Shown in pieces: positions 29,475 through 47,220 of a stretch of DNA of 48,996 nt. How positions within the stretch are numbered: the first letter of the stretch is position 1; every line of letters starts with the position of its first letter. The notes beneath the pieces were generated by a model. The model was not told the DNA's origin, ran no database searches, and worked only from the letters and a program-made list of their open reading frames with translations. The stretch lies in sequence record PQ569677.1, one strand, 5' to 3'. The DNA comes from Klebsiella phage vB_Kpn_K50_evo36. The position numbers were made by a program, and so were the translations under genes.

Positions 29475-29531
29475 ATCGCGCGTATGGATAATGCCACGCG
29501 CGCGATAATTTGGTTTAGCAATTTGTGCTGT
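29475..29531 (-). promoter_or_regulatory. motif-type promoter for primase gene (motif 29511-29531; -10 CATTAT in loop of ATCGCGCG hairpin 29475-29506)
   Basis: Minus-strand reading: ACAGCACAAATTGCTAAACC-22 nt-CATTAT. Confidence 0.5.
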
Positions 29532-29964
29532 CTTTTAGGTCTGACTCTTTCACTACGCGGAGCATTTCTCGGCGGTCGCAAGTTCTGGTTAGTGCCTTGC
29601 CGTTGGAATCAAACCGCAAATCTGGACGGCAAAATGACGCTCGGAAACCCTTGCAGCCGTTTCGCTTGTAGTCTTTTTGCACTCGTTCTGCGCCGCTTGC
29701 CGAAATCATTCCTCGCTTGCGCCACTGCTGGATCGTCTGGTGAGTCACACCAAGGCGTCGGCACATTTCCGCTTGCGTGCCGTAATACTCGCGTATAATA
29801 TCAAGCCTTGCCCGCAACCCCGCGCGCACTTCATCTTTTAGCACGTAGTAGCCTGTTTTGCGCTTGCGCTTCTTCTTGTCTTTGCCTCTACGTGTGCCGT
29901 TGTTCCCGTTGAGTGTGCGCTTGTCAACTTCACCAGTAGATACTGCAATGCGTGGCTCTTTCAT
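29515..29964 (-). CDS. HTH DNA-binding protein (candidate transcription regulator)
   Basis: 149 aa, Lys/Arg-rich N-term, HTH-like 'GVTHQTIQQWRKRG'; own sigma70-like promoter (TTAACG-16-TATAAT on minus strand ~30025-30052); C-terminus 'DSTNC*' encoded by the 21-bp motif. Confidence 0.4.
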   Translation of the reverse strand: MKEPRIAVSTGEVDKRTLNGNNGTRRGKDKKKRKRKTGYYVLKDEVRAGLRARLDIIREYYGTQAEMCRRLGVTHQTIQQWRKRGMISASGAERVQKDYKRNGCKGFRASFCRPDLRFDSNGKALTRTCDRREMLRVVKESDLKDSTNC

Positions 29965-29974
29965 AAAATATCTC

Positions 29975-30020
29975 CTATAGCATTTTTTGCTAAAAAATTT
30001 CGTTTTGAGGCGTTTATTAT
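29975..30020 (+). promoter_or_regulatory. motif-type promoter for helicase gene (variant palindrome TAGCAttttttGCTA; TATTAT 30015-30020)
   Basis: TTGCTA-22 nt-TATTAT spacing identical to other copies. Confidence 0.45.
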
Positions 30021-30052
30021 AGCCGCAAACGAACTAACGTTAAAGGTTTAAA

Positions 30053-32086
30053 ATGGCTATTCCACACATTGATAAGCAACTTTCCGCGCTCGGTGAATCA
30101 GTAATTAAGGCGATTCAGGAGCGATTTACCGTTGGCGATATCGTCCCTTATCCTTACCAGTGCGTCGCGTATACAGAGATTGCAAAGCGCATGAAAAATT
30201 ATGAGCATCCATTCTTTGTTAAGGCTTCCGTGTCTGCTGGTAAAACAATCATCTTCGCAATGGTTGCCGCGCAGTGTAAGCGCATGGGCTTGAAAATGAT
30301 GGTGCTGGCCCGCCAGGCGGAGATTGTGGATCAGGACTCCGAGGAGATCTCAAACTTCGGTGTTCCAAACTCCATCTATTGCGCCGGACTCCGCACAAAA
30401 AGCGCATACTTCCCTATTGTCGTTGGATCGGAAGGGACGGTTTCAAATGGCATGTTTAAGGCTCTTGGTGATTACGTCCCGCACGTAATCGGGATTGACG
30501 AATGCCACCAGGTGGATTGGGAGGATTTGGCGGACGCCATAGAAAACGATGAGCAGTACGAGCAAATGACCACGAAAAAAGGCGAGCTTGTGCTGAATGG
30601 TGACGGATCCTACATCTTCAACAAAGACGGCGAGCCGATGAAAGGCACGGGCCGCAGCCAGTACACCGTTATCATTCGCGAAATGCAAAAGCGTTGCAAG
30701 GAAACCTACGGGCATGAGTTGCGCATTTTCGGAATGACAGGATCGGAGTTTCGCGGCGTGGTTCCAATCCTCGTTGAGGATAAGCGCATCAAAGGGTTTT
30801 GGCGTGAGCAGGTAACGAACATTGACACCAACTACCTGATTAAGGTTGGCTCGGTTGTGCCGACGAACTTTGGTAACGTTGACGGCTTAGGCTATGACCT
30901 ATCAGAGTTCGAAGCATCTAGCGAAGATGGCGTTGCAGAGTTCGAAGCATCTAGCGAAGATGGCGTTGCAGACTTCGATCTTAAAACGCTGCGCGCTATG
31001 GAGGAAAAAATCCACAACGACGCAACAATGACGCAGAAGATAATGCAGCGCGTTCATGAGATCTGCAAAGACCGAAACGGCGTACTGGTGACGTGCGCGG
31101 GTGAGCGCCATTGCAAAGAAGCAGCAGCCGCATTACCGCCAGGCACAACGTACCGGATTATCACTGGCAAGACTGGCGAGAAGCAGCGTAAGGAGTGGTT
31201 GCGAGAAGCGTTTGAGGGGAAAGTTAAATACATTTTCCAGGTTATGGCCCTTACCACTGGCGTTAACGTGCCGTTTTGGGATACGTCTGTTATTCTGCGT
31301 AAGATTGGCTCGTTAACACTGCTGATCCAGTTGCTGGGGCGCGGAATGCGACTGTTAAAGAAATGGCATATTGACCAGGGATTCAAGAAAGACGATCACC
31401 TTGTTCTCGACTTCGCCGGATGCCTTGATGAGTTGGGCCAACTTTACTTTGATCCGATTTTAGAACAGGCGCAGTTTCAAAACCGATTCTCAACCGGGAA
31501 AGATCCTAAACACTGCCCGATTTGCGGGACGGAAAACAGCTTTTATGCTCGCCGCTGCATTCACACCGACGCAGACGGGAACCGCTGCGAGCATTTTTGG
31601 AAATTCCGCGTGTGCGAAAATCAGATTGACCCACGGACGAAAAAAGTGATTGTGCCAGGTTGCGGAACGAAAAATGACGTTGTAGCGAGAGTGTGCCGTT
31701 GCTGCGATGCGTCACTGATTGACCCTAACGAGAAGTTGAGCGGCAAACACTATACAAAAAATGACTGGTGCACGGTGAAAAGCTTCCGTGTCGATATGAC
31801 GAAAAATCAGAAGGGGATCGTGTTCTGCTACGAGCTTGAGGCGCACGGCGAAACATTCAAGGCGTATGAGAAATTTTTCCCTGAATCTGACAGCCAGATC
31901 TGCAAAGCAAAATGGCGTCAAGCAGCGTTAGCTCACATTGTAGATCGCAGGGTGGCGGGAGTTACAGCCAGCTACCGCAATGCGAGAAAGATCATGATGA
32001 ATGCGCACTACATTATGACGCCGCAGAGAGTTACCCACCGCAAAAATGCGAAGGGTGAAGATATTATTTATAAAAAGGAGTTCTGA
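30053..32086 (+). CDS. ATP-dependent helicase (SF2, DEAD/DEAH-box type) with C-terminal Cys-rich zinc-ribbon region
   Basis: Walker A 'SAGKTIIFAM', 'GIDECHQ' DEAH box, helicase C motifs; C-terminal CxxC pairs (CPICG..C..C, CGTKND..CRCC); contains 33-bp in-frame tandem duplication. Confidence 0.75.
   Translation: MAIPHIDKQLSALGESVIKAIQERFTVGDIVPYPYQCVAYTEIAKRMKNYEHPFFVKASVSAGKTIIFAMVAAQCKRMGLKMMVLARQAEIVDQDSEEISNFGVPNSIYCAGLRTKSAYFPIVVGSEGTVSNGMFKALGDYVPHVIGIDECHQVDWEDLADAIENDEQYEQMTTKKGELVLNGDGSYIFNKDGEPMKGTGRSQYTVIIREMQKRCKETYGHELRIFGMTGSEFRGVVPILVEDKRIKGFWREQVTNIDTNYLIKVGSVVPTNFGNVDGLGYDLSEFEASSEDGVAEFEASSEDGVADFDLKTLRAMEEKIHNDATMTQKIMQRVHEICKDRNGVLVTCAGERHCKEAAAALPPGTTYRIITGKTGEKQRKEWLREAFEGKVKYIFQVMALTTGVNVPFWDTSVILRKIGSLTLLIQLLGRGMRLLKKWHIDQGFKKDDHLVLDFAGCLDELGQLYFDPILEQAQFQNRFSTGKDPKHCPICGTENSFYARRCIHTDADGNRCEHFWKFRVCENQIDPRTKKVIVPGCGTKNDVVARVCRCCDASLIDPNEKLSGKHYTKNDWCTVKSFRVDMTKNQKGIVFCYELEAHGETFKAYEKFFPESDSQICKAKWRQAALAHIVDRRVAGVTASYRNARKIMMNAHYIMTPQRVTHRKNAKGEDIIYKKEF
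30904..30969 (+). repeat. exact 33-bp in-frame tandem duplication in helicase gene
   Basis: agagttcgaagcatctagcgaagatggcgttgc x2 (EFEASSEDGVA x2), plus partial third copy. Confidence 0.85.
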
Positions 32087-32088
32087 TC

Positions 32089-46029: not shown

Positions 46030-46203
46030 ATGTTTCTCATTACCACAAGTGAGCAATGCATATACACGCCGGGCGTTAGTATTGACGCGGTTTCCGAGGG
46101 CGATAAGCTGATATTGACAACGCGCGACCTCGAAGGCAAAATGCTACGCAAAATCGAACTGGCCCGCGATGAGGCCGAAACACTGACCATCAAAAGGAGT
46201 TAA
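46030..46203 (+). CDS. small hypothetical protein
   Basis: 57 aa ORF downstream of motif promoter (TAAAGT 45966-45971); not in supplied track (<60 aa). Confidence 0.3.
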   Translation: MFLITTSEQCIYTPGVSIDAVSEGDKLILTTRDLEGKMLRKIELARDEAETLTIKRS

Positions 46204-46205
46204 CC

Positions 46206-46478
46206 ATGAAAACCAATCGTAAATACCTGGCCCGCTCGTTTACCAAGATCGCAAAGCGCTGGGACGACTCCAAGAAAACCACCGAAAACTTGCGCAAGCA
46301 CGGCTTCAAGAGCGCTCGCCAGTGGGGCCGCGAAATGGCTAACATGTATTTTGACGAAATGGCGAGCATGTGTGCCGACTCGCTGGCTGAAATGCTGGAA
46401 GAGGCGGTGATATCCGATCAGCCAATCAACCAAGAGGATTTCGACTACTTCGCATTTGAGGAGATCTCGAATTGGTAA
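46206..46478 (+). CDS. hypothetical protein
   Basis: 90 aa, RBS aaaaggagttaaccATG. Confidence 0.45.
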   Translation: MKTNRKYLARSFTKIAKRWDDSKKTTENLRKHGFKSARQWGREMANMYFDEMASMCADSLAEMLEEAVISDQPINQEDFDYFAFEEISNW

Positions 46479-46657
46479 GGATTCGCACAGACTATGCGGA
46501 AACGCCCTGGATAATTCCGGGCAAGGTTTACGAGGCAGAGGTTTCAAAGATTAGGCCAACGCTTTACACCTTCATCGGGGAGTTAGGCTCCCCGGTACTA
46601 ACCGAACTGAAACATTCAACGCACATTGGCGGTAAAGATTGGGAGATTTTAGAATGA
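46472..46657 (+). CDS. hypothetical protein (non-ATG start)
   Basis: 61-aa ORF requiring TTG start; weak. Confidence 0.25.
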   Translation: MVRIRTDYAETPWIIPGKVYEAEVSKIRPTLYTFIGELGSPVLTELKHSTHIGGKDWEILE

Positions 46658-47175
46658 GCGACTACGTAACACCGACTATCACTTGCGGCAACTTCACCAA
46701 GGGCAAGCACTACGAAGTGTTTCGCGAGTACCCAGGGGTAGGTTCAGCGGATCGCGTAAGAATCAATGACGACAGTGGCCTTAGCGTCATTGCTTTCGTC
46801 GGCGTGCCGTCCTCGCTACTTTGTTATAAAGGCTGCTTCCATCGCGTGAACTTTGAAACGAGCGACTCGATCAGCATGTCCGGGTTTTATCGCAAGGAGC
46901 CGATCCAGAATTCCGAGCCGTTCGTGTTCCGTGATGGTCGGCTGTACATCAACAAGGCGAAGATTGGCGGCGCTATTATGACCAGCGGGGCGCTAAAGCC
47001 AAGCGGCGAGGATTTGGTTGGGCGTTGCGAACGGCTGCAAGAGCAGGTTAACGAGCTTATCGCGGCAAATGAGGAGGTTCGAAAAATTCTACGCTGTCCT
47101 GATGGGTTCGATATTCGCAAGCAAGCGCAAGTTGTCCGCACGCTGGCCGATACCCTGCTGGCTATCAGCAAATAG
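46654..47175 (+). CDS. hypothetical protein with C-terminal coiled coil
   Basis: 173 aa from MSDYVTPTIT; RBS gggagattttagaATG; stop TAG lies in next 21-bp motif. Confidence 0.45.
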   Translation: MSDYVTPTITCGNFTKGKHYEVFREYPGVGSADRVRINDDSGLSVIAFVGVPSSLLCYKGCFHRVNFETSDSISMSGFYRKEPIQNSEPFVFRDGRLYINKAKIGGAIMTSGALKPSGEDLVGRCERLQEQVNELIAANEEVRKILRCPDGFDIRKQAQVVRTLADTLLAISK

Positions 47176-47220
47176 CACGAATTGCTAAAACTCGGTTGGG
47201 GTAACTTGCTATAGTTACCC
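47171..47220 (+). promoter_or_regulatory. motif-type promoter (motif 47171-47191; GGGGTAAC-ttgctatag-TTACCCC hairpin; leader CCCCATCGAAACG)
   Basis: Perfect consensus copy; 22-nt spacing. Confidence 0.55.

Follow-up and report, generated by a model that had tools for sequence, protein, structure and literature searches.

The genome of Klebsiella phage vB_Kpn_K50_evo36 (sequence record PQ569677.1), analysed here as a single stretch of 48,996 nucleotides (nt) that is referred to as the window, contains a repeated 21-base element. The repeat is genuine and labels some 15 promoters of this T1-like phage. Its sequence, orientation and position agree with those of the binding site for the host activators MarA, SoxS and Rob, so that the phage may use proteins borrowed from its host. 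A probability of about 60% is given to this reading, which takes the element for an activator site in class II marbox promoters that depend on Rob, MarA or SoxS of the host; the estimate rests on sequence features. The window comes from a T1-like siphovirus (Drexlerviridae) whose gene order is syntenic with that of Escherichia phage JohannLBurckhardt. For the stretch 29000-48996 the closest relative is Klebsiella phage RCIP0096, with at best 84% identity over 74% of the stretch.

A repeated promoter element in T1-like phages

An earlier note on this DNA had listed 18 copies of a palindromic element, and all of these positions were recovered by a position weight matrix (PWM) built from the copies, far beyond chance. 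In total, 19 sites in the window scored at least 14 bits, whereas five shuffled windows peaked at 13.0 bits. The exact core TAGCA-N5-TGCTA is present 11 times against 0.03 expected, and the 21-mer with up to three mismatches 10 times against 0.01 expected. Degenerate copies at 28424-28443(+) and 16629-16648(+) extend the initial list. The consensus of the window is AAATAGCACGAATTGCTAAAAC, with maxima of the information profile in ATAGCAC and TTGCTAAA; the consensus ATAGCACGAATTGCTAAAAC is carried by the box at 32501-32520, and consensus copies are also found at 44511-44530, 45928-45947 and 47172-47191.

As an observation, the repeat has already been published, and this phage is a further carrier of it. 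The 2024 re-annotation of phage TLS described a 21-nt direct repeat with the consensus aaATAGCACnnnTTGnTAAAA and maximum conservation in ATAGCAC and TAAAA, whose 18 intergenic copies (DR1-DR18) are co-directional with transcription, lie about 76 nt 5′ of start codons and fall into the sub-types AAA, TTT and GAA (PMC11447400). The same repeat was noted in T1, Rtp and Rogue1, and its function was presented as an open question for T1-like phages, for which stoperator, enhancer and UP-element ideas were offered (PMC11447400). The question raised in the earlier note, whether T1-like phages are known to have the motif, is answered by that study. The window, which belongs to a phage separate from TLS, contains the same element in 19 copies, within the roughly 18-21 per genome given for these repeats; in the 16 with promoter geometry, the element begins 71-90 nt ahead of a start codon that is itself preceded by a Shine-Dalgarno sequence. 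In the published account of the TLS repeats, neither the constant 22-nt spacing to a -10 hexamer nor the asymmetric conservation, the marbox match or the hairpins described below are reported (PMC11447400). No other paper in the searchable literature prints the motif; that literature did not extend to subscription papers, the 2004 report of the T1 genome among them.

The geometry of the modules is highly regular. The distance between the last base of TTGCTA and the -10-like hexamer with the best score is 22 nt in 14 of the 19 copies, 21 nt in one (22926) and 23 nt in another (45110). At copy 34144 the best-scoring hexamer lies at 25 nt (TATTAT), and TAGTAT is present at 22 nt, as in the T1 and JohannLBurckhardt orthologues. 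The spacing of 21-23 nt that had been proposed holds for most copies and fails at 2097, which has no good hexamer at 22 nt, and at 6690(-), where the gap is 17 nt. Similarly, the claim that each copy is oriented with local transcription stands for the promoter-type copies, which are co-directional with their start codons, and does not extend to 6690(-), which is antisense to late genes; the other exception in the window is 28425(+). When positions are numbered from a predicted +1 placed 7 nt past the -10 hexamer, the box spans -50 to -31 with its centre at about -40.5 to -42, and the class II activator position that had been assigned to it (centre about -41/-42) is retained. A scan with the -35/-10 consensus found a usable -35 in just one of the 15 modules within 29000-48996; for the other 14 the initial observation of no usable -35 holds. 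In the same stretch, canonical sigma-70 promoter-like sites were not enriched (18 against 22.7 expected from shuffles). This lack of enrichment in the non-structural half of the genome agrees with the TLS supplement, where just three canonical sigma-70 promoters are given, one of them being P57 for a helix-turn-helix (HTH) regulator (PMC11447400).

The genes located behind the modules are non-structural: primase, two helicases, a region with VRR-NUC and Dam genes, a phosphoesterase and many small genes. The modular nature of the accessory genes was also correctly recognised, each small gene or pair of genes having a module of its own. Some of the modules also share a conserved predicted start region (TACCCCATCGAAACGAA; for example, 47216-47235, 42380-42401 and 41708-41728). 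This conservation extends across different phages and points to duplication or exchange of entire promoter-leader cassettes.

Conservation was analysed in T1, TLS, JohannLBurckhardt, Rtp and KP36, drawn from four subfamilies or genera; with the window they make up six Drexlerviridae genomes. Copy numbers in the five relatives range from 16 to 24, and in every genome 13-15 copies keep the gap at exactly 22 nt, which was the outcome of the motif check in relatives that had been suggested at the outset. Inclusion of IMG/VR fragments raised the collection to 267 distinct copies with a 22-nt gap from 59 sources. An exact-motif scan of the viral contigs of IMG/VR showed that those with at least three matches are mostly about 47-53 kb long, a length typical of T1-like genomes; single matches elsewhere were close to chance, and the scan gave no evidence of the element in other phage families. 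The position statistics that follow derive from the 95 promoter-type copies of the six genomes. Their -10 hexamers are TATAGT, TATAAT, CATAAT and TATTAT, and a TGn extended -10, of which the examples pointed out previously are real, is present in 43 copies and absent from 52.

An asymmetric site with the features of a class II marbox

The conserved positions of the box are A-50 T-49 A-48 G-47 C-46 A-45 C-44, W-42 W-41 T-40 T-39 G-38 Y-37 T-36 A-35 A-34 A-33. Positions G-47, C-46, T-40, A-35 and A-34 are conserved in 100% of the copies, G-38 in 99%, A-45 in 98%, A-48 in 96% and C-44 in 92%. The palindrome seen in the initial inspection is confined to the 5+5 core, which is dyad-symmetric in 66-94 of the 95 copies; outside it, in the flanks and spacer, mirror positions are complementary in just 0-10% of the copies. 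Position -37 is C in 66 and T in 26 copies, and its partner G-47 is invariant. In the resulting variant TTGTTAAA (TTGTTA/TGTTA, 26 of 95) the dyad is broken and the left half is still TAGCA. A true palindrome was ruled out by this asymmetric conservation together with the dyad-breaking variant. An operator of the Cro/CI type for a dimeric HTH regulator is also not supported, since the symmetry involves only the 5+5 core and not the whole site.

The marbox is bound by MarA, SoxS, Rob and RamA, activators that act as monomers and carry two HTH motifs. For genome screening in E. coli it has been written as gcannwwntgnnaaa and explicitly described as non-palindromic (PMC12052159). With this consensus as the sole query, 15 perfect matches were found in the window against 0.93 expected, none of 100 shuffles reached 15, and all 15 matches were copies of the repeat. 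The older 20-bp consensus AYnGCACnnWnnRYYAAAYn gave 16 matches with at most one mismatch against 0.93 expected, 14 of which were repeat copies. Across the six genomes, 79 of the 95 copies fit gcannwwntgnnaaa with no mismatch and the remaining 16 with one.

The register provides a second line of evidence, for which only the micF and mar loci, whose boxes were confirmed against database sequence, were used. In the micF promoter of E. coli K-12 (ACAGCACTGAATGTCAAAAC), ATGTCA is separated by 22 nt from TAGAAT and the annotated 5′ end of micF lies 7 nt further. The phage modules show the same orientation and the identical 22-nt register, with GCAC at -47 to -44. The top match of the phage PWM in the micF locus is the micF box, and in the 1051-bp mar locus it is the mar marbox ATGCCACGTTTTGCTAAATC, which is read backward (strand opposite marR; 14.6 bits). 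In the E. coli sequence the orientation of the phage box is that of the micF box and opposite to that of the class I mar box, and the phage consensus resembles a composite of the micF box (left half) and the mar box (right half). The cryo-electron microscopy structure of Rob and RNA polymerase on micF showed that the A site is GCAC, with Rob contacting G-47 and A-45, that the B site overlaps the -35 and that sigma region 4 is occluded by Rob (PMC9178005). In class II promoters, forward sites are clustered near -41 (-36 to -55), with no recognisable -35 and a canonical -10 (PMC10268841, PMC8811837). On the predicted starts, the phage modules share all these features: consensus, asymmetry, forward orientation, overlap with the -35 position, no -35 and a canonical -10. 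The apparent marbox identity of the element is new to the searchable literature, in which no link between MarA, SoxS or Rob and the Drexlerviridae was found either.

A mechanism can be proposed from these features. A monomeric host activator with two HTH motifs, of the MarA/SoxS/Rob/RamA family, would bind the asymmetric 20-bp box from -50 to -31 in the forward orientation, with GCAC at -47 to -44 as the A-box and YTAAA at -37 to -33 as the B-box. The bound activator would contact sigma-70 region 4 and the C-terminal domain of the RNA polymerase alpha subunit (alpha-CTD), replacing -35 recognition and thereby placing the host RNA polymerase on the canonical -10 located 22 nt past TTGCTA. Transcription would start about 7 nt past the hexamer, in many cases on the A within a conserved CATCGAAAC, and would generate a short leader with a Shine-Dalgarno sequence. 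In this way some 15 modules would drive the non-structural genes, including primase, two helicases, Dam methylase, phosphoesterase and small accessory genes. In unstressed cells, Rob would be the likeliest occupant (constitutive and abundant), and MarA, SoxS and RamA might take its place under antibiotic, oxidative or bile stress. Binding of the host proteins, activation and the transcript starts are what we infer from match, orientation and register.

Candidate readers of the element

The host range of the family fits with a host reader: the host names of the relatives are enterobacterial (among them Escherichia, Klebsiella, Shigella, Salmonella, Enterobacter, Citrobacter, Cronobacter and Pantoea), apart from anomalous records under 'Campylobacter phage' or Vibrio. 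Enterobacteria carry Rob, MarA and SoxS, and often RamA. About 20 records that bear the name 'Campylobacter phage' (for example, MG065649 and MG065638) are T1-like genomes or fragments close to coliphages, and their host label looks doubtful. The phage genomes were also searched for an activator of this type. The MarA query was validated by a 95%-identical Salmonella marA fragment. In tblastn against the window, MarA, SoxS and Rob gave a best E-value of 0.43 and no homologue, and in tblastn of MarA against 50,697 phage records no T1-like phage was present among the 40 matches listed of 126, nor any Klebsiella phage in the organism tally of all matches. Pfam scans of 30 window proteins revealed no AraC-type HTH, and PHROGs searches with 10 proteins likewise none. 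A phage-encoded MarA/AraC activator was rejected, as these searches of the window and of the phage records yielded none in T1-like phages.

Two phage HTH proteins were seen in the window, the phosphoesterase (34423-35544) and a 149-aa regulator (29515-29964) that constitutes the basis of a different explanation. According to it, this regulator (T1 gp23 family), made as an immediate-early protein, would bind TAGCA-N5-TGCTA as a dimer at -42 and activate about 15 delayed-early or middle promoters, in a manner likened to the action of T4 MotA or lambda CII, and the likeness to the marbox would be a coincidence. Several observations speak for it. The regulator was found in all 798 T1-like records and nowhere else, co-occurring fully with the element. 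Because it is universal in the family and restricted to it, such co-occurrence cannot separate a host reader from the phage regulator. Its gene is among only three with a canonical sigma-70 promoter in TLS, the homologous promoter in the window being TTAACG-16-TATAAT. The -10 of this promoter (30016-30021, minus) overlaps at five of six positions the -10 of the divergent helicase promoter (30015-30020, plus), and a copy of the element lies in the leader of the regulator itself. Such face-to-face promoters with overlapping -10s and the element in the regulator leader are the classic layout of an autoregulatory switch, and because the hexamers overlap on opposite strands the two promoters should be mutually exclusive. 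The dyad symmetry of the 5+5 core and a box tighter than host marboxes also suit a dedicated dimeric reader.

Contrary to this, C-44, T-40 and the AAA flank lack mirror partners (0-10%), and the TGTTA copies keep an intact TAGCA left half. The protein has a single HTH, whose segment LGVTHQTIQQWRKRGMIS resembles the Cro/CII/YdaS type, and yields only sub-threshold Pfam matches (Cro/YdaS/MerR-like). Its putative recognition helix, assigned by analogy, varies (THQTIQQ, SNQTVQG, NLKTVWG, TPQAVEE) among six phages whose element is unchanged, which would weigh against the regulator as the reader, as an argument and not as a disproof. Finally, it is very unlikely that a 15/15 marbox fit in the right orientation and in the exact micF register arises by chance. 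The dimeric phage-encoded HTH reader that the earlier note had proposed is not favoured on account of the asymmetric site, the marbox fit in the micF register and the variable regulator helix, and is considered unlikely. As a separate observation, residues 11-41 at the N-terminus of the phosphoesterase, annotated as 'DNA repair exonuclease', resemble sigma-70 region 4 (Sigma70_r4_2, 24 bits with a cut-off of 25.7), and the same is seen in the KP36 record.

A further explanation dispenses with the activator. RNA polymerase would use the -10 or extended -10 unaided, and the box would touch alpha-CTD in the manner of an UP element or offer sigma an unusual contact by way of TTGCTA. The TGn motif in 43 of the 95 copies and hexamers close to the consensus are in its favour, as is TTGCTA itself, which shares four of six positions with TTGACA and lies 17 nt from the hexamer in the antisense copy 6690(-) and the orthologous copies. 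An UP-element role was among the ideas raised for TLS (PMC11447400). On the other side, the 52 copies that have neither TGn nor a usable -35 should be very weak unaided, the invariant bases contain G and C (GCAC, TTGC) as opposed to an A/T-rich UP element, and the box extends from -50 to -31 and not from -60 to -40. Moreover, a 22-nt gap is beyond the tolerance of sigma-70. Promoters that work without any activator appear improbable.

The third possibility is that the copies act negatively or as decoys, either as roadblock or 'stoperator'-like operators or as a sponge that titrates host MarA, SoxS and Rob to blunt the stress response. The box is intergenic and oriented with transcription, like the L5 stoperators (PMC11447400), conserved copies are present in non-promoter contexts (2097, 6690(-), 16629 and 28425), and 15-24 high-quality sites per genome are multiplied by the number of replicating genomes. 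However, a fixed distance of 22 nt to the -10 in 13-15 copies per genome throughout the family suits a promoter and not a roadblock, and in this virulent phage the Pfam scans of 30 window proteins showed no repressor or lysogeny module. A negative or decoy function as the explanation of the element is very improbable; a decoy role could be compatible with activation.

Host-activated class II promoters also face objections of their own. The match to the marbox was noticed post hoc and the argument is one of sequence alone. The fumC promoter gave a weak match to the phage PWM, with a plausible forward box (ATGGCACGAAAGACCAAACA) and an A/T-rich hexamer at 21-22 nt, and the inaA and sodA promoters gave no clear match. 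The phage box is stricter than host marboxes, including positions at which the host consensus has N (A-48, 96%; T-40, 100%), and this strict conservation could mean that another protein, of higher specificity, reads it. Next to one of the copies lies the conserved phage HTH regulator, which has a canonical promoter of its own. The need for an activator may be doubtful for the 43 copies with a TGn extended -10. Reliance on non-essential host factors should make host resistance easy; rob, marA or soxS mutants are not known among the classical T1-resistant mutants, with no exhaustive search made. Rob is constitutive and has a higher affinity than MarA or SoxS (PMC10268841). In unstressed cells most Rob is kept sequestered and there is little MarA or SoxS (PMC10268841), yet T1-like phages thrive in ordinary laboratory culture.

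Hairpins in and around the -10 region

Most modules contain, in addition to the box, a potential hairpin. Compared with shuffles, the segment from about -30 to +8 had a mean folding z of -3.2, and 69 of the 95 copies were below -2. For 62 copies the -10 falls in the loop of a hairpin whose 5′ arm comes from the spacer and whose 3′ arm extends from the discriminator to about +7; in 29 it is located in the spacer and ends at -13. The hairpins are 4-13 bp long and of variable sequence, and in the window they are found at 39099-39123, 44535-44562, 45134-45164, 45950-45985, 47195-47225, 22950-22980, 29475-29506 and in most other modules. Stems differ from copy to copy, with compensatory changes between orthologous promoters. 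For example, the stem of the helicase promoter is GGTTGGCC/GGCCAACC in the window (39099-39123), GGTTGACC/GGTCAACC in JohannLBurckhardt, GTTGCCG/CGGCAAC in TLS and TTGACGG/CCGTCAA in T1. A single consensus hairpin was discarded, as column-pair complementarity in 267 aligned copies showed no one register, and Rfam gave no family match anywhere in the window.

The T1 and KP36 records annotate several of the promoter hairpins as terminators. Their identification as intrinsic terminators was rejected because only 7 of the 95 copies have a U-run (at least five T in the next 8 nt). Since a transcript that starts at the predicted +1 lacks the 5′ arm, the hairpin could form as RNA in read-through transcripts only, or it would act in DNA. 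As a guess, it might be a 3′-end or insulator hairpin that belongs to the unit upstream and occupies the only promoter positions free of constraint, or else a G+C clamp through which opening would come to depend on the activator. On the opposite strand, at 32522-32539 and 44539-44562 (minus), a hairpin is followed by a T-run complementary to the AAAA of the element, an arrangement that is terminator-like for antisense transcription.

Coordinates of the modules and other copies

The features of the window are collected in Table 1. At the primase module, the box (29512-29531) overlaps the 3′ end of the regulator gene, and a 12-bp hairpin around the -10 is followed by a T-run. The module at 34143-34196 has orthologues in T1 (40309) and JohannLBurckhardt (32365).

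Table 1. Promoter modules, other copies of the element and associated features in the window
Feature	Coordinates	Strand	Box	Gap and -10 hexamer	Predicted +1	Gene or context
Box copy without the 22-nt geometry	2096-2115	+	2096-2115	TGTATAAT 8 nt downstream		Between large terminase and portal genes; terminator hairpin directly after TGTATAAT
Antisense box copy in late region	6686-6705	-	6686-6705	TTGCTA-17-TATGAT (6667-6672)		Ordinary sigma-70 geometry
Degenerate box	16629-16648	+	16629-16648 (ACAGCACAAAAGGTTAAAAC)			Ends 2 nt 5′ of start codon of J-like tail gene (16651)
Promoter module	22925-22974	+	22925-22944 (ATGGCACAAATAGCTAAACA)	21 nt, TATAAT 22962-22967	~22974	Gene 23001-23285; hairpin encloses -10
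Weak box copy, 17.9 bits	28424-28443	+	28424-28443			Just outside start of tail-fibre gene (24463-28407, minus strand), opposed to leftward genes
Promoter module	29481-29531	-	29512-29531	22 nt, CATTAT 29488-29493	~29481	Primase gene 29455-28541
Conserved phage HTH 'transcriptional regulator' gene	29515-29964	-				T1 gp23 family, 149 aa; rival candidate reader of the element
Promoter module	29977-30027	+	29977-29996 (GCAT variant)	22 nt, TATTAT 30015-30020	~30027	Helicase gene 30053-32086
Canonical sigma-70-type promoter	30016-30043	-		TTAACG-16-TATAAT, -10 at 30016-30021		HTH regulator gene; homologous to P57 in TLS (PMC11447400 supplement)
Promoter module	32501-32551	+	32501-32520	22 nt, CATAAT 32539-32544	~32551	32576-32860 and Dam methylase gene
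Promoter module	33833-33883	+	33833-33852	22 nt, TATAAT 33871-33876	~33883	Gene 33905-34087
Promoter module	34143-34196	+	34143-34162	22 nt, TAGTAT 34181-34186, or 25 nt, TATTAT 34184-34189		5′ of small open reading frame and phosphoesterase gene 34423-35544
Promoter module	39103-39153	-	39134-39153	22 nt, TATAAT 39110-39115	~39103	DUF3987 helicase gene 39082-37502; hairpin 39099-39123 encloses -10
Promoter module	39785-39835	-	39816-39835	22 nt, CATAAT 39792-39797		Gene 39763-39392
Promoter module	41067-41117	-	41098-41117 (TTT variant)	22 nt, CATAAT 41074-41079		Gene 41039-40818
Promoter module	41722-41772	-	41753-41772 (GCGC variant)	22 nt, TATTAT 41729-41734		Gene 41697-41266
Promoter module	42395-42445	-	42426-42445 (GCGC variant)	22 nt, CATAAT 42402-42407		Gene 42370-42086
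Promoter module	44039-44089	+	44039-44058	22 nt, TATAGT 44077-44082		Gene 44114-44305
Promoter module	44511-44561	+	44511-44530	22 nt, TATAAT 44549-44554		Gene 44591-44869
Promoter module	45109-45160	+	45109-45128	23 nt, TGcTATAGT (hexamer 45148-45153)		Downstream open reading frames up to 45357-45944
Promoter module	45928-45978	+	45928-45947	22 nt, TGaTAAAGT (hexamer 45966-45971)		46030-46203 and following genes
Promoter module	47172-47222	+	47172-47191	22 nt, TGcTATAGT (hexamer 47210-47215)		47247-47459 and following genes

The four copies located outside the promoter modules have counterparts in the relatives. At 2096-2165, the extended -10 is followed by a strong terminator (GGCTGGA...TCCAGCC TTTTTT), with the same layout at JohannLBurckhardt 2103; this promoter-then-terminator order may hint at attenuation or antitermination control of the late genes. 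The antisense copy with its hexamer (6667-6705, minus) points into the upstream late gene and adjoins a plus-strand terminator, an arrangement kept at T1 15071(-), TLS 15027(-) and JohannLBurckhardt 6351(-). The degenerate box at 16629-16648 overlaps the ribosome-binding site of the J-like tail gene and has orthologues at T1 25022, TLS 24909 and JohannLBurckhardt 16190. Copies similar to 28424-28443 are present at JohannLBurckhardt 26785, T1 34903 and Rtp 33763.

Implications and comparison with known systems

A broader proposal, given slightly less than even odds, is that the Drexlerviridae, including the Klebsiella Webervirus phages, would hand the recognition of their early and middle promoters to MarA, SoxS, Rob and RamA. 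Expression would then be tied to the mar/sox/rob stress state of the host, multidrug-resistant strains mutated in marR or ramR would support the phages better and rob marA soxS mutants less well, and the -10 hairpin would be a new structural addition that gates the promoters. If the marbox reading holds, a virulent phage family would be using host stress regulators as a promoter-specificity factor, and the scarcity of ordinary sigma-70 promoters in these genomes would be explained. It would also predict a link between the over-expression of MarA or RamA in clinical Klebsiella and E. coli and their permissiveness to therapy phages, for which Klebsiella Webervirus phages are candidates. The marbox reading is specific and directly testable, and it addresses a question stated as open by the field.

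Several known systems share part of this organisation. The T4 middle promoters have a good -10, no -35 and a TGCT-containing MotA box, and their activator substitutes for -35 recognition together with sigma appropriation by AsiA. The phage modules share with them the good -10, the absence of a -35 and a conserved box containing TGCT. In contrast, the MotA box is centred at about -30, some 12 nt from the -10, whereas the phage box ends 18 nt from the -10 with TGCTA at -39 to -35. With the box centred at about -40.5 and no member of the MotA or AsiA families detected in the Pfam scans of 30 window proteins, T4 MotA-type middle promoters were rejected. In the lambda CII promoters (PRE, PI and PaQ), the activator site straddles a poor -35 and CII reads the direct repeat TTGC-N6-TTGC; the phage element contains instead a single TTGC plus a GCAC half-site, and T1-like phages are virulent. 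An UP element does not fit either, as it would be an A/T-rich tract at -40 to -60, and the element has invariant GCAC and TTGC and reaches -31. The stoperators of mycobacteriophage L5 are also many, asymmetric and oriented with transcription (PMC11447400). They belong, however, to a temperate phage, in which they serve as repressor roadblocks and keep no constant distance to a -10, whereas the phage element is defined by its 22-nt register. A further likeness is with the class II promoters that depend on MarA, SoxS, Rob or RamA, and with micF in particular, with which the modules share a non-palindromic 20-bp forward marbox near -41, GCAC at -47 to -44, a poor -35, a canonical -10 and the 22-nt register. 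They differ from the host class II promoters in that the boxes reside in a virulent genome, at 15-24 per 50 kb, and are far less degenerate, and from micF in that most of them have a hairpin in or around the -10 region.

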